Shown: positions 2,327 through 7,368 of the stretch, one piece after another
How the letters are laid out: every line of letters starts with the position of its first letter
How positions within the stretch are numbered: the first letter of the stretch is position 1
Source of the DNA: an uncultured Sutterella sp.
GTDB taxonomy: Bacteria; Pseudomonadota; Gammaproteobacteria; Burkholderiales; Burkholderiaceae_F
Direction: 5' to 3'
NCBI GenBank assembly: GCA_905192805.1
Contig: CAJJMF010000001.1
Location: 1 to 39,569 of the forward strand
DNA: 39,569 bases
Made by a program: the position numbers and the translations under genes
The notes under the pieces: model-generated
What the model saw: only the letters and a program-made list of their open reading frames with translations
Told to the model about the DNA's origin: nothing
Database searches by the model: none

Positions 2327-2917
2327 CTAGACACTCGCCTTCACTCCTCGGGCATAGGCTAAAAACGCTTCGAGCATCGAGAGCCCCCCTTGGGTCAAAA
2401 TGGATTCGGGATGAAATTGCACGCCAAAAATGGGATAGGCTTGGTGGCGCACCGCCATCACTTCCCCATCCTCGGTCACGGCGGTGACGCGTAAACTCGG
2501 GGGGACCGTGTCGGGGCGCGCGGCGAGCGAGTGGTAACGAGCGACTTCCCCCGTATCCCCCAATGCTTCAAAAAGCACCGAGTCAGGGGCATAACGAACA
2601 CGGCTCGATTTACCGTGCATCAGCGTCTTGGCATAGGTGACCGTTGCACCAAACGCTTGGCAAATCGCCTGATGGCCTAAGCAGACACCAAGGATTGGTA
2701 TCCGATGGCCTAAGCGCTTTACCACGTCAACAATCACGCCAGCGTCTTCGGGACGCCCAGGTCCCGGCGAAAGGACAATCGCCTCAGGCGCCAACGCTTC
2801 GATCGCGTCCACACTCAACTCGTCGTTTCGAATGACACGAATGTCACGCTCCAGCGTCCCCAGATACTGGTAAAGGTTGTAGACAAAGCTGTCGTAGCTA
2901 TCAATCAATAAAATCAT
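2327..2917 (-). CDS. trpG: anthranilate synthase component II (class I glutamine amidotransferase)
   Basis: MILLIDSYDSF, SPGPGRP, GVCLGHQ, RYHSL, GVQFHPES; ATGA overlap with trpE. Confidence 0.95.
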   Translation of the reverse strand: MILLIDSYDSFVYNLYQYLGTLERDIRVIRNDELSVDAIEALAPEAIVLSPGPGRPEDAGVIVDVVKRLGHRIPILGVCLGHQAICQAFGATVTYAKTLMHGKSSRVRYAPDSVLFEALGDTGEVARYHSLAARPDTVPPSLRVTAVTEDGEVMAVRHQAYPIFGVQFHPESILTQGGLSMLEAFLAYARGVKASV

Positions 2918-4374
2918 AGAACCTCCCCGGACTGCTCTAACGCACGAACCACGGCTTTGGCCTTATTGACACACTCTTGGTATTCGTTCTCGGGAACACT
3001 GTCCGCCACGATCCCTGCGCCACTACGCACATAGACTTGGTTGCCTTTACGATAGGCCAAGCGAATCGCAATACAGGTATCCATATTGCCGGCAAAATCG
3101 ATATAACCGACTGCCCCTCCGTAGATGCCTCGCTGGTTGTCTTCGAGTTCACGGATGAGCTCACAGGCACGGATTTTCGGTGCCCCTGAGAGGGTGCCCG
3201 CAGGCAGTACCGCACTGATCGCATCGAGCGCATCCTTATCGTCGCGAATCTCCCCACGCACGGTCGAGCCGATGTGCATGACATGCGAAAAACGCTCAAT
3301 GGCACGGAGTTTCTCGACTTTAACCGTTCCAAAACGACTAATCTTGCCTAAATCGTTGCGTCCCAAATCGACCAACATGTTGTGCTCGGCCAATTCCTTT
3401 TCATCGGCTAAGAGTTCGGCCTCAAGCGCCAAATCGGCCTCGGGCGTTGCTCCACGAGGACGCGTGCCGGCTAAGGGGAAGGTGTGAAGAACCCCATCGG
3501 TGAGTTTGACGAGGGTTTCGGGCGAGGCACCCGCCACCTCTACGTCCGTCCCCGAAAAGTAAAAGAGGTAAGGCGACGGGTTAATCGTGCGTAGCAACCG
3601 ATAGGTATTAAAGAGACTTCCTTCAAAGGGGCCTGAAAACCGGTTCGATAAGACGATTTGGAAAATATCGCCTTCAGTGATGTAGTGTTTGGCCCGTTCG
3701 ACCATCTGACAAAACGTCGATTGACTAAATAAGGGCGTCATCTCACCCGTGAGTCGACCCGTGGGCGACGGGGCACGGTGCGAGGTATTGAGGAGTGCTT
3801 TCATCTCCTCGATGGCCATCTGGGCGTGGATGTAATTCGCGTCCAGATCGTCCGTGGTCACATTGACAATCAACAGAATCTTTTGCTTTAAATGATCAAA
3901 CGCAATGATGCGATCAAAGAGCATCAAATCGAGGTCTTTGAAGTCGTTAGCAGCGTCGTAGTTGAACTGAAGCCGGGACTCTGTATAACCAAAGTATTCA
4001 AACGAGAAGTACCCAACGAGGCCCCCGGTCAAGGGCGGTAGCCCTTCCACACGGGCCGAACGGTGCGATGTCAAAAGTTCGCGCAAATACTCATGCACGG
4101 GAGCGTCCACGCGCTCGCCATTCACGAAGAGTTCGCCCGCTTGTGCCGTCACACAAAGCCGTGGACGGAAACCCAGAAAGCTGTAACGACCCCAGTGCGT
4201 TTTATCTTCGAGGGATTCGAGTAAAAAGACATGCTCAGAGGCTTCGCGCAACAAATTGACCGCTTCAATCGGCGTCAGCGCATCGGCGAGCATTTCACCA
4301 CAGACGGGCACGCGACGAATCTCTGGATTCTGCGCGAGCGTTTTTAAGGTCTCGAGACTCGGATAAAGTGGCAT
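2914..4374 (-). CDS. trpE: anthranilate synthase component I (start moved to ATG 4374 behind AAGGAA)
   Basis: FLLES and NPSPY Trp-feedback motifs; PLAGTRPRG, KELAEHNMLVDLGRND, PAGTLSGAPK. Confidence 0.95.
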   Translation of the reverse strand: MPLYPSLETLKTLAQNPEIRRVPVCGEMLADALTPIEAVNLLREASEHVFLLESLEDKTHWGRYSFLGFRPRLCVTAQAGELFVNGERVDAPVHEYLRELLTSHRSARVEGLPPLTGGLVGYFSFEYFGYTESRLQFNYDAANDFKDLDLMLFDRIIAFDHLKQKILLIVNVTTDDLDANYIHAQMAIEEMKALLNTSHRAPSPTGRLTGEMTPLFSQSTFCQMVERAKHYITEGDIFQIVLSNRFSGPFEGSLFNTYRLLRTINPSPYLFYFSGTDVEVAGASPETLVKLTDGVLHTFPLAGTRPRGATPEADLALEAELLADEKELAEHNMLVDLGRNDLGKISRFGTVKVEKLRAIERFSHVMHIGSTVRGEIRDDKDALDAISAVLPAGTLSGAPKIRACELIRELEDNQRGIYGGAVGYIDFAGNMDTCIAIRLAYRKGNQVYVRSGAGIVADSVPENEYQECVNKAKAVVRALEQSGEVL

Positions 4375-4393
4375 AAACGTTTCCTTAGGCAAT

Positions 4394-4431
4394 AAAAAAA
4401 CTCCATCGTTAGCCCAGTGCTATCGAGGAGT
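4394..4431 (-). terminator. intrinsic terminator (attenuator) of the trp leader
   Basis: Minus strand ACTCC-TCG-ATAGC-ACTGG-GCTA-ACGA-TGGAG followed by 7 T, ~20 nt before the trpE ATG. Confidence 0.8.
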
Positions 4432-4503
4432 GCTTATTGACTTAGGCCACGCGCCTAAAAACGGTAAGGTAACCTCTCGATAGCCCTATAGGGGGGCTCA
4501 AAG

Positions 4504-4762
4504 AGGTAAGGACGAGCGTGGTGCCCGCGGTGCCACCTTACCTTCATAAGTGCCACGAAGGCGCTTATGCACTTTTTAACGGGTACCATCATACCCTGAA
4601 CCACTCACGTGGGTTCTCTACGTCGCAGAATACTCGGTCCTAGAGAAGGACTTTTCCCTACGCCCTCAGCGGCCCATTATAACGGTGTGTTTCTTACCTC
4701 ACTTCCACCTACTGAGGCTCTCTCTTAAGGCATCATCCGTTTTTACTTCCGCGTCGACGGTG
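4504..4762 (-). ncRNA. T-box riboswitch, tryptophan-specific
   Basis: Stem I with GA motif, AGUA S-turn (4747-4744), AGAGAG bulge (4725-4720), GGUGGAA apical loop (4709-4703), specifier UGG (4676-4674); stem II with GAA/AGUA; CCGUUA F-box; stem III; antiterminator AGGUAAGG-UGGCACC-GCG...CGU-CCUUACCU (4543-4504). Confidence 0.95.
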
Positions 4763-4770
4763 TACTACTA

Positions 4771-4799
4771 ATCCTAGGGAAGTCTTCGGGGCACGTCAA
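4771..4799 (-). promoter_or_regulatory. sigma70 promoter of the trp leader
   Basis: TTGACG (4799-4794), 17 nt spacer, TAGGAT (4776-4771), ending ~10 nt before stem I. Confidence 0.75.
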
Positions 4800-4890
4800 T
4801 GCCCCCTCTCGACTTCTCCCAAGAATGTCACCGGATAGGGGCGTTGACGCAATCGCTCTAAGGACATTCCACTAAGCGTTAACCCATAGG

Positions 4891-4928
4891 AAAAAAGCAC
4901 CACACAGTTTTCTGCGTAGTGCTTTCTT
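4891..4928 (-). terminator. intrinsic terminator after ppsA
   Basis: Minus strand AAAGCACTACGCAG-AAAA-CTGTGTGGTGCTTT-TTT. Confidence 0.8.
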
Positions 4929-4998
4929 TGCGTGGGGAGACGCGCTTTCGGAGGGCTTCTCCGACAGGTCTCCCCTTAGGCGATCCTTTAGGGCGAAT

Positions 4999-7368
4999 TT
5001 ACTTCGCCAAACGACGCCACGTATCGACCACCGTATCCGGGTTAAGCGAGATGGACTCAATACCTTGATCCATCAACCACTGAGCAAAGTCGGCATGGTC
5101 AGACGGACCCTGACCGCAAATACCCACGTACTTACCCTGAGCACGGCAAGCCTTAATGGCCATCGCTAAAAGGGCCTTCACCGCGTCGTTACGTTCATCA
5201 AAGCTCGCAGCCACTAAGCCCGAGTCGCGGTCAAGCCCTAAGGCCAACTGCGTCATGTCGTTCGAACCGATCGAGAAGCCGTCGAAATACTGTAAGAACT
5301 GATCCGCTAACACGGCGTTCGAGGGGATTTCGCACATCATGATGAGGCGTAAGCCATTTTCGCCACGCTTCAAACCATGGCTGGCCATGATTTCGGTCAC
5401 GCGCTGCGCTTCGTTAATCGTACGCACGAAGGGGAGCATCAATTCGACGTTCGTTAAGCCCATTTCGTCACGGACAAACTTCATCGCACGGCATTCCATC
5501 GCGAAGCATTCCGCAAACTGGTTGGCAATGTAGCGCGAAGCGCCACGGAAGCCCAACATCGGGTTTTCTTCATCGGGTTCGTACTGAGCCCCACCGATCA
5601 ACTTACGGTATTCGTTGCTCTTAAAGTCCGACAAGCGAACAATGACCTTCTTCGGATAGAAGGCTGCCGCAATCGTCGCCACGCCTTCGGCGATCTTACG
5701 TTCGAAGAATTCCTTCGGATTGGCATAACCCGCCGACAAACGTTCGGCCGCGTCACGCAATTCGCCAGGCACATTCGGGTAATCCAACACCACCTTCGGG
5801 TGGATACCGATGTTATTGTTGATGATGAACTCTAAGCGAGCCAAACCCACCCCCTTATTCGGGATGCTCTGGAATTCAAAGGCCAACTGGGGGTTACCCA
5901 CGTTCATCATGATCTTGACCGGGACTTCCGGCAACGCACCGCGTTGAACTTCTTCAACGGCCACGTCTTGGAGACCTTCGTAGATGTTACCCGTATCGCC
6001 TTCGGCGCAGGACACCGTCACTAAGTCGTTTTCGACTAAGCGTTCGGTCGCGTCACCGCAGCCCACCACGGCGGGAATCCCTAATTCACGCGCAATAATG
6101 GCAGCGTGGCAGGTACGACCACCACGGTTCGTGACAATGGCGGAGGCCTTCTTCATCACGGGTTCCCAGTTGGGGTCCGTCATGTCGGTCACTAACACGT
6201 CGCCCGGTTGCACACGATCCATTTCGGAGGCGCTTTCCACAATACGCACGGGGCCCTGACCAATCTTCTGACCAATCGCACGGCCCTGGCAAAGCAAGCG
6301 GCCCTTGCTCTTTAAGGCGTAACGCAACTGAACGTCGACACCCTTTTGCTGGCTCTTAACGGTTTCCGGACGCGCTTGCAAGATGTAGATCTTGCCATCG
6401 ATCCCGTCCTTACCCCATTCGATGTCCATCGGACGGCCGTAGTGCTTTTCAATAATGCGAGCAAACTTGGCCAATTCGATCACGTCTTCATCGGTAATCG
6501 AGAAACGACGACGATCTTCGGGCGCCACATCCAAGGTACGAACCGTACGACCCGTCGTGCTATCGGGTTCGAATTCCATCTTGATTAACTTGCTACCCAA
6601 GGTCTTGCGGATGATCGGGTACTTGCCCTGATCCAAAATGGGCTTATGCACATAGAATTCGTCCGGATTCACCGCCCCCTGAACGACCGTTTCACCCAAG
6701 CCGTAGCTCGCGGTAATGAAAACGACCTGATCAAAGCCCGATTCCGTATCAAGCGTGAACATCACGCCAGCAGCCCCCTTGTCGGAGCGGCACATACGTT
6801 GCACACCGGCCGAGAGAGCCACTTCAGTATGGGTAAACCCTTTGTGGACACGATAGGAAATCGCACGGTCGTTATAAAGCGACGCAAACACTTCCTTCAT
6901 GCGATGGAGCACCGCATCGATACCCACAACGTTCAAGACCGTTTCTTGCTGGCCCGCAAAGGAGGCGTCCGGCAAGTCTTCCGCCGTCGCCGAGGAACGC
7001 ACGGCCACGGAGATTTCCGACTGACCGTCCTTTAACCATTCATAGAAATCACGGATTTCTTTTTCTAACTGCTGAGGGAACGGAGCGGCTTCGATCCAAC
7101 CACGGATTTCCGCGCCCGCTTCAGCCAAGGCCTTCACGTCATCGACGTCCAACGTCTGTAAGCGCTGAGCAATACGTTCTTCAAGACCACCTTCCTTAAT
7201 GAAAAGACGGAAGGCTTCGGCGGTAGTAGCAAAACCATCTGGTACACGAATACCCGCAGACGTCAATTGGCTCAGTAATTCGCCCAAAGAAGCGTTCTTA
7301 CCGCCAACGCGATCCACATCGCTCATGCGAAGTTGACTAAACGGGAAAACGTAACGACCCTGTATCAT
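4999..7368 (-). CDS. ppsA: phosphoenolpyruvate synthase (pyruvate, water dikinase)
   Basis: [32 protein letters not shown], phospho-His motif [19 protein letters not shown]. Confidence 0.98.

Follow-up and report, generated by a model that had tools for sequence, protein, structure and literature searches.

The stretch of DNA analyzed in this work, hereafter the window, comprises 39,569 nucleotides (nt) from an uncultured Sutterella sp. (contig CAJJMF010000001.1 of assembly GCA_905192805.1), and its minus strand carries at one end genes of tryptophan biosynthesis that are preceded by a T-box leader. The first of them is trpE, encoding anthranilate synthase component I of 486 amino acids (2914-4374; Pfam Chorismate_bind and Anth_synt_I_N, NCBIfam trpE_most with 509 bits), whose ATG at 4374 lies 7 nt behind a Shine-Dalgarno sequence, AAGGA (4382-4386), read from the sequence. 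It is followed by trpG for a glutamine amidotransferase (2327-2917; Pfam GATase), trpD for anthranilate phosphoribosyltransferase (1232-2269; Glycos_transf_3), trpC for indole-3-glycerol-phosphate synthase (417-1235; IGPS) and the 5′ part of trpF (1-420; PRAI), which is cut by the contig end. Contig C111 of this genome begins with the remainder of trpF and continues with trpB and trpA; there, TrpF, TrpB and TrpA of another Sutterella genome (G049) found tblastn matches at 1-294, 337-1524 and 1205-2284; in G049 itself the order T-box-trpE-G-D-C-F-B-A is uninterrupted. We consider it likely that the leader is a transcriptional (class I) T-box which senses tRNA-Trp and controls this seven-gene trpEGDCFBA operon, and that the Sutterella lineage received both from Clostridia-like Bacillota; the T-box may act on a remote terminator through a relay of alternative RNA helices.

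The sensing domain and the host tRNA-Trp

The leader core, from Stem I to the antiterminator, occupies 4505-4766 on the minus strand, where positions 1-219 of the 219 in the Rfam T-box model RF00230 align with 73.7 bits and an E-value of 6.3e-16 in an Rfam scan run with an E-value threshold. In the whole-genome search it was the sole match (E 4e-16) in 2,431,206 bases. The earlier note on this DNA, made from the letters alone, had predicted a Trp T-box here on the understanding that RF00230 would recognize it, and the E-value bears this out. A point against the assignment is that the score falls under the gathering score of the family, 93 bits in the Rfam release used, which is why the scan of the whole window at the gathering threshold gave 0 matches. 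The same applies to all 13 Trp T-boxes found in the host's family, where 12 of the sampled genomes carry them (73-91 bits), so that pipelines built on the cut-off probably miss them, and similar T-boxes scoring below it may be hidden elsewhere.

According to the cmscan alignment and the sequence itself, Stem I spans 4664-4760 and holds an AG bulge, AAGAGAGAG (approximately 4726-4718), a distal loop, UAGGUGGAA (4711-4703), and the specifier loop; both the AGAGA of the bulge and the GGUG of the distal loop align to the RF00230 model. The specifier is UGG (4674-4676), coding for Trp and followed by the purine G4673, exactly where it had been placed beforehand. Stem II, the IIA/B region, an extra conserved hairpin and Stem III (4570-4545) then fill 4545-4663. 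The T-box sequence proper, AAGGUGGCACCGCGG, belongs to the antiterminator (4505-4542; cmscan alignment and RNAalifold), which consists of the 5′ strand GGUAAGG (4542-4536), the bulge UGGCACC with its UGGC at 4535-4532, an inner hairpin (4528-4512) and the 3′ strand CCUUACC (4511-4505). The extra hairpin, GGGUAUGAUGGUACCC (approximately 4598-4581), follows the IIA/B region and precedes Stem III; the Rfam consensus lacks it, so that it aligns as an insertion, but every one of the 13 family elements keeps it, with compensatory changes (columns 193-208 of alignment A1).

In the same alignment the UGG specifier and the UGGC bulge are present in 13/13 elements, and the surrounding AAUGG and UGGCACC are likewise invariant. 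RNAalifold recovered Stem I, Stem II, the extra hairpin and the antiterminator, with 33 of the 54 predicted pairs kept through two-sided changes in at least one sequence, which is the pattern that would be expected of a functional RNA. Together, the full-length model match, the Stem I features, the bulged antiterminator, the cognate tRNA described below and a Trp target gene are what is found in a class I T-box. What was not found is a terminator whose 5′ arm is the antiterminator 3′ strand and which is directly followed by a U-run; the family assignment therefore follows from the sensing domain, with the expression platform treated as a variant. Judged by its sequence, the element is a genuine Trp T-box, and as far as the sensing domain goes it belongs fully to the family. 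The initial observation is confirmed; the interval given with it, 4504-4799, contains the T-box and omits the expression platform, which extends to 4394 and is not canonical.

Ahead of the leader, the promoter scan gave a sigma-70-type site with 9/12 matches (4771-4799), made of a -35 box TTGACG (4799-4794), a 17-nt spacer and a -10 box TAGGAT (4776-4771). With 1 promoter-like site found and 0.7 expected in shuffles, the match is not significant alone; the motif TTGACG-N17/18-TAG(G/C)AT ends 5 nt ahead of the T-box start in 6/8 Sutterella leaders, and this conserved position lends substance to the promoter that the earlier note had named. Among the 54 tRNA genes of the genome there is one for tRNA-Trp(CCA), on contig C123, with the discriminator G73 followed by an encoded CCA. 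The UGGC bulge is complementary to the resulting G73-C-C-A end, and since this sole tRNA-Trp also has the anticodon CCA, both tRNA contacts match, as had been anticipated for the specifier and the bulge.

The expression platform and the predicted relay

Downstream of the antiterminator, the minimum-energy folds contain a hairpin in the place of the canonical T-box terminator helix (4470-4509, here 2:3). Its 5′ arm, segment 2 (UUACCUCU..GAGCCC, 4509-4494), takes in the final 5 nt of the antiterminator 3′ strand, and beyond the loop (4493-4487) its 3′ arm, segment 3 (GGGCUAUCGAGAGGUUA, 4486-4470), has no U-tract directly after it. Then come, in this leader only, a second CCUUACC (4469-4463), a G and the run U5 (4461-4457), the whole spanning 4457-4469, and a small hairpin (4458-4442). 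The distal intrinsic terminator (4:5, with its U-run 4394-4431) is formed by segment 4 (ACUCCUCGAUAGC, 4431-4419), a loop (4418-4414), segment 5 (GCUAACGAUGGAG, 4413-4401) and U7 (4400-4394), and its hairpin has a predicted energy of -12.2 kcal/mol. It stands approximately 75-76 nt past the antiterminator and has no bases in common with it. Segment 3 (GGGCUAUCGAGAGGU) nearly repeats segment 5 (GGCUAACGAUGGAGU), and segment 4 is complementary to both.

Such a layout differs from that of the donor-type leaders, i.e., those of the Clostridia-type trp loci considered below, where the first run of at least five U lies at a median of 61-63 nt past the T-box motif and belongs to the canonical overlapping terminator, and where it is displaced by more than 100 nt in 0/61 leaders from named genomes and 7/63 from metagenomes. 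On the other hand, 7/8 Sutterella leaders, as well as the leader from another genus of the host's family (g84), have a strong hairpin with U6-U8 located 109-140 nt past the T-box motif and just ahead of the start codon. In all of these the hairpin shares no bases with the antiterminator, and the overlapping helix is kept without an uninterrupted U-tract.

We infer from this layout a relay in which the T-box would act on the distal terminator through the intervening segments. Transcription would start at the TTGACG-N17-TAGGAT promoter, and tRNA-Trp would be docked by Stem I via UGG:CCA pairing. If the tRNA is uncharged, its G73-C-C-A end would pair with the UGGC bulge and stabilize the antiterminator helix (4542-4505), which would compete with the 2:3 hairpin (4509-4470) and not directly with the working terminator. 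With segment 2 held by the T-box helix, segment 3 would be free to pair with segment 4, the terminator 4:5 with its U7 (4431-4394) could not form, and transcription would read through into trpE. With charged tRNA, 2:3 would form, 4:5 would form in turn, and transcription would stop.

The relay was derived wholly from thermodynamic folding, and several comparisons are consistent with it. In the window, the 3:4 duplex reaches -19.0 kcal/mol, and 9/500 shuffles were as good. Among seven leaders, the duplex beat dinucleotide shuffles of the linker in six (0-21 of 500 as good), the seventh (L005) having a mis-parsed terminator and giving no support; with the terminator 5′ arm alone the result was clear in 2/7 leaders and weaker in a third, and the test was repeated with arm and loop. 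In every case the pairing takes the 3′ arm of the hairpin next after the antiterminator, and the sequences themselves differ between leaders. When the T-box helix was enforced, the distal terminator disappeared from the minimum-energy fold in 7/7 leaders, and it was present in the unconstrained fold in 5/7. This switch pattern, a terminator in the free fold that is lost with the T-box helix, arose in 7/200 linker shuffles of the window and in 3.5-8% of the shuffled-linker controls across leaders, and it was also seen in the g84 leader. Two successive terminators are present in 29/119 distinct donor-type leaders, where the second shows the switch in 5/28, so the Sutterella leaders are enriched for it (Fisher p 0.012, or 0.03 with the near-identical pair G046/G050 counted once).

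A number of observations weigh against the relay. The free fold already lacks the terminator in 2/7 leaders (the G005 transporter leader and G024), the terminator is predicted in only 3/7 when the T-box 5′ strand is blocked, and the enforced helix removes it in 13-40% of the shuffled-linker controls too. The distal hairpin is bulged and weak, at the value given above in the window and between -9 and -12 kcal/mol in other leaders, and a simple terminator scan reported no terminator-like site on the minus strand. Moreover, the leaders are related to one another, so that the counts overstate their independence. A search for RNA runs containing the region found none; four wastewater runs matched 0.14-0.17 of the sampled words. 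Because of the weak hairpins, the folds of the 'on' state, the kinship of the leaders and the exclusive use of folding, we put the coupling of the T-box to the distal terminator at about even odds.

The run U5 at 4461-4457 also speaks against the relay, as it stands at the canonical position and could be the T-box's own terminator. In that case the T-box would be a simple two-state device with a proximal terminator, behind either the 2:3 hairpin or a three-way junction, and the distal U7 hairpin would be an uncoupled attenuator or a leftover. The offset of the run from the T-box motif, 76 nt, is within the 5th-95th percentile of the donor-type leaders (52-76 in the named set, with a maximum of 95). 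In the minimum-energy folds, the second CCUUACC can pair with the antiterminator 5′ strand and close a three-way junction through a 9-bp helix ending 1 nt ahead of the U-run; this junction with its U5 is a possible first terminator. Tandem terminators of the kind mentioned above are, furthermore, not peculiar to Sutterella, and in 23/28 donor-type tandem leaders (L006-L085, L133-L212) the second one is unaffected by the enforced T-box helix. Against this, the U5 occurs in the window only, and the other six Sutterella leaders with a distal terminator have no run of at least five U at the canonical position. The 2:3 hairpin, which shares 5 nt with the antiterminator, ends 8-9 nt ahead of the run, too distant for a simple intrinsic terminator, whereas a strong uncoupled terminator 20 nt upstream of the start codon would block the operon. 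Considering also the 3:4 complementarity and the switch pattern, both enriched over shuffles and the latter over donor-type leaders, we regard a proximal terminator as unlikely to be the working one, and retain the relay as the preferred mechanism.

A leader-peptide attenuator was considered separately and ruled out, as no open reading frame (ORF) with tandem Trp codons exists between 4766 and 4375 on the minus strand, and a cmscan of 4200-5100 that allowed E up to 10 gave 2 matches, neither of them to the Trp leader family RF00513. Near the start of trpE, UUUUUAGGC (4461-4453) can pair with GCCUAAGGA (4390-4382), spanning the Shine-Dalgarno sequence, and this pairing is present in the minimum-energy fold; GCCUAAG is also present at 4447-4441. 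A possible consequence, judging from the fold, would be an additional layer of translational control.

Conservation, origin and host of the T-box-trp unit

The survey of Sutterellaceae proposed in the earlier note revealed that the T-box is not unique to the window. In Sutterella, 8 elements occur in 7/42 genomes, its own genome (G000) included, and among 151 sampled genomes of the family a T-box is carried by 9, from 4/26 genera. None was found in 147 genomes of the order's other families, 150 of the class and 150 of the phylum, in large searches with stricter filters and few candidates scored per genome, by which weak matches may be lost. Every identified gene downstream of the family elements is related to tryptophan: trpE in G000, G005, G049, G122 and G209; trpD in G024 and G050 (Pfam), in G046 (near-identical leader) and in G017 (blastn to the start of the window's trpD); a TrpB-like pyridoxal phosphate-dependent enzyme in G157 and G110 (Pfam) and in G141 (near-identical layout); and an SNF/NSS transporter in G005. 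This last element is the second Trp T-box of G005 (L002, C5:54030-57285), and another SNF-family gene lies directly upstream of it. In G017, trpD starts approximately 480 nt past the T-box, the sequence in between is unassigned, and no U6 terminator is present there; the trpD frame of G046 is split into ORFs of 206 and 137 amino acids, and that of G050 is a single ORF of 345. The T-boxes of two other genera, g80 and g68 (L128-L131), have AT-rich leaders with a canonical overlapping terminator and sequences far from the Sutterella/g84 group, a divergence that suggests a separate acquisition.

This conservation bears on the question of whether the T-box could be a non-functional passenger of an operon that is constitutive or controlled otherwise. 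Its absence from the sampled genomes outside the family makes the mechanism foreign to the host lineage, and the canonical terminator is degraded, as would suit a passenger. However, in four genera the specifier, the bulge and every stem have been preserved, with the compensatory changes described above, the position of the promoter is conserved, and the elements precede four kinds of Trp gene. In addition, a terminator kept directly ahead of the start codon in 7/8 Sutterella leaders would silence the genes unless it were regulated. We therefore find a passenger improbable; the covariation and the invariant specifier and bulge support selection on the T-box, as the earlier note had supposed, and we infer that it functions in the host.

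The presence of trpE itself varies among the congeners. At E up to 1e-20, the TrpE search gave no match in 32/42 Sutterella genomes; 7/42 have a second, order-like TrpE (41-44% identical to that of the window; loci L092-L098) without a T-box, and 3/42 have the Clostridia-like TrpE with a T-box, the two types occurring together in none. The genomes with a T-box before trpD, G017 (L003), G024 (L004), G050 (L086) and G046 (L087), are without a TrpE match, and anthranilate synthase has apparently been lost there. With no TrpE match in most Sutterella, the acquired unit would decide which gut Sutterella make tryptophan, and when.

In regard to the origin of the unit, the proteins point away from the host's order. 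Among 185,579 species genomes, the best 80 matches to TrpE are 62-66% identical, and by record title 71 of these 80 are Bacillota, mostly Lachnospiraceae, Oscillospiraceae and unclassified Clostridia. In a collection of 5.8 billion proteins, the closest named TrpEs (68%) are from Lachnospiraceae or Clostridia, the nearer ones being metagenome proteins without names (98%, 89% and 73%). In contrast, the TrpEs of 57 other genomes of the order are 40-48% identical, a range independent of one of them, the unpublished G066, whose locus was left out of later comparisons. The same holds for TrpG, with a median of 64% to Clostridia-type loci against 47-53% to the order or the other Sutterella type, and for TrpD (72% against 46%), and the order trpE-G-D-C is common to the window and the Clostridia-type loci. 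A FastTree tree was built from 118 TrpEs (80 named Clostridia-type, 28 from the order, 7 of the second Sutterella type, and those of the window, G005 and G049). The order-level sequences and the second Sutterella type, from 7 genomes, form a clade with a support of 100, while the window, G005 and G049 fall outside it and branch basally to the 80 named sequences, with path lengths from the window of 0.8-1.3 to the named Clostridia-type rows against 2.4-3.0 to the order clade.

The leader shares this affinity. The T-box core motif is located at most 700 nt upstream of trpE in 69/80 named Clostridia-type loci, the bulge in donor-type leaders is UGGC in 122/132 and UGGU in 10/132, and blastn with the window's T-box RNA gave direct matches to 97/160 donor-type loci, at a median identity of 71% across 142 nt. 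Since the Trp proteins are Clostridia-like, donor-type trpE genes have T-boxes upstream and the RNAs are similar, leader and operon would have arrived together, and the operon, leader included, appears to have been acquired by the Sutterella lineage from Clostridia-like Bacillota. The transfer of the switch with its operon, which the earlier note had proposed, is in this way corroborated. The tree tempers this conclusion in two respects, as the T-box-type TrpEs of Sutterella are placed basal to the 80 Clostridia-type sequences and not within them (in a FastTree tree only), and as the three of them were not recovered as one clade.

Some records fall outside these groups. Clostridia-type TrpEs were also observed in metagenome-assembled genomes not labelled as Bacillota, namely L024, L062 and L081 (labelled Planctomycetaceae, Sumerlaeota and Alistipes), L038, L053 and L056, and three of these records have a T-box motif upstream of trpE; they are either mislabelled or contaminated bins or further transfers of the T-box-trp unit across phyla. 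Likewise, the metagenome contigs L133, L134, L136, L138, L140 and L141, with a guanine-cytosine (GC) content of 0.59, represent one near-identical population whose trpE leader closely resembles the leaders of Sutterella G024 and g84. In that leader the U-tract of the first terminator is interrupted (CUUUUGUUUG) and a strong second terminator follows; the population may represent an intermediate, or may itself belong to the host's family. A metagenome scan for further Sutterella-type leaders yielded only TrpE loci at 61-66% identity.

The host itself is identified by the neighboring gene ppsA (7368-4999, minus strand; Pfam PPDK_N, PEP-utilizers and PEP-utilizers_C), whose product shares 91-95% identity with proteins labelled Sutterella wadsworthensis, S. 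massiliensis and Sutterella sp. NCBI places Sutterella in Sutterellaceae, Burkholderiales, Betaproteobacteria, in agreement with the earlier note, which had spoken of an apparent betaproteobacterium. The protein atlas gave for PpsA only the weak statement 'commonest Pseudomonadota', and the sucA RNA motif, taken as a marker of Burkholderiales, had no match in this genome nor in any control genome, so that it says nothing about the host. A single T-box in the genome and none in most congeners or in the sampled genomes of other families indicate, in addition, that the host is not Firmicute-like. Behind ppsA is its own hairpin with U6 (approximately 4922-4891), read by eye and unreported by the terminator scan, and beyond the gene lies a divergent gene for the phosphoenolpyruvate-synthase regulatory kinase. 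At the ppsA region (4891-7368), Sutterella-type DNA gives way to the acquired unit.

That a Clostridia fragment was misjoined to, or misbinned with, Sutterella DNA is extremely improbable despite the fragmentation of the genome into 299 contigs and the Clostridia being the closest named relatives of the trp genes, because the Sutterella-type ppsA and the T-box share one contig, 230 nt apart, the same junction recurs in the independent congeneric genome G017 (ppsA 85% and T-box 77% identical), the unit of G049 lies within a contig of 285,717 bases, the GC content of the trp region (0.50-0.60) resembles that of the genome (0.526), the top Clostridia protein is at most 68% identical to the window's TrpE, compared with the unnamed metagenome relatives above, and the assembly is estimated at 97.6% completeness and 0.12% contamination. 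The G005 unit is likewise on a long contig. With the G017 junction, the G049 contig and the ordinary regional GC content, a chimeric assembly, the objection that the earlier note had itself raised, is excluded.

If leader and operon were indeed transferred, the T-box could subsequently have lost its own U-tract and been rewired through the four-segment chain to a remote terminator, giving a new class of expression platform and a functional regulon in a Gram-negative host. We offer this tentatively, as somewhat less probable than its opposite. Such rewiring may have adapted the leader to a proteobacterial RNA polymerase, which needs a strong hairpin and an uninterrupted U-tract.

Relation to known T-boxes and trp attenuators

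T-boxes are regarded as belonging to Gram-positive bacteria, both as a mechanism and as an antibiotic target specific to that group. A conserved and apparently selected Trp T-box regulon in Sutterellaceae would mean that the switch can move across phyla with its operon, as a transferred T-box would need only the tRNA and the RNA polymerase of the host. It would also constitute a natural experiment on the changes needed for a proteobacterial transcription machinery, which apparently concern the terminator end and not the sensing end. If the rewired relay is true, Gram-negative gut bacteria have a functional tRNA-sensing regulon of trpE, trpD, trpB and transporter genes. The family-wide regulon, the escape from the Rfam cut-off and the apparent rewiring of the terminator are what the present analysis adds to the earlier note.

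The closest known systems are the Trp T-boxes located before trpE in Clostridia and other Firmicutes (RF00230), and an earlier study, cited in PMC2494555, reportedly described tRNA-Trp-dependent antitermination for the trp operon of Lactococcus lactis. The Sutterella leader has all of their sensing parts from Stem I to the UGGC bulge, the same trpE-G-D-C order and an NSS/SNF transporter as a further target, and its RNA is similar in nucleotides to that of the donor-type loci. It differs from them in its proteobacterial host, in an overlapping helix without an adjacent U-tract, and in a terminator located approximately 75 nt further.

In its platform, the leader also resembles the leader-peptide attenuator of the enterobacterial trp operon (trpL, RF00513), which is governed by the logic of the 1:2, 2:3 and 3:4 helices. 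Both have mutually exclusive helices that lead to a U-run terminator directly before trpE, with a middle segment deciding between them. However, the Sutterella linker has no AUG-started ORF with Trp codons, and its input would be a tRNA on the T-box helix instead of a stalled ribosome.

Within Proteobacteria, according to the available sections of Wels et al. 2008 (PMC2494555), T-boxes were found in 2/125 genomes, compared with 53/53 genomes of Firmicutes. Both cases are deltaproteobacterial, Geobacter sulfurreducens and Pelobacter carbinolicus, with the T-box upstream of leuA, as described in portions of PMC2494555 and PMC3766115. In the sections at hand of the latter, Sun et al. 2013 (PMC3766115), T-boxes are confined to Firmicutes, Actinobacteria, Chloroflexi, Thermus/Deinococcus and Geobacter. 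Proteobacteria go unmentioned in the main text of the paper on TBDB (PMC7778990), as do beta-proteobacteria in the available part of PMC9413887. Our full-text literature search found no published T-box in the Sutterella or betaproteobacterial lineage, although database or supplementary table entries could exist. As far as these partial sources go, the leuA T-boxes resemble ours in being isolated elements of a proteobacterium ahead of an amino-acid biosynthesis gene, and differ in class, amino acid (Leu instead of Trp) and target gene. Unlike them, the Sutterella operon is visibly Firmicutes-like, and the element occurs at several Trp loci in four genera of one family. The transporter T-box of G005 recalls the Trp-T-box-controlled NSS transporters of the Bacillus cereus group, in line with the statement in the same sections of PMC2494555 that Trp T-boxes of Firmicutes precede trpE and NSS transporters.

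Finally, a sensing domain joined to a non-standard expression platform is also found in the class II translational T-boxes of Actinobacteria, in which, according to PMC7778990, Stem I is shortened and the ribosome-binding site becomes sequestered. In contrast, the Stem I of the Sutterella leader is full-length, and its platform ends in a U7 hairpin upstream of a free Shine-Dalgarno sequence.

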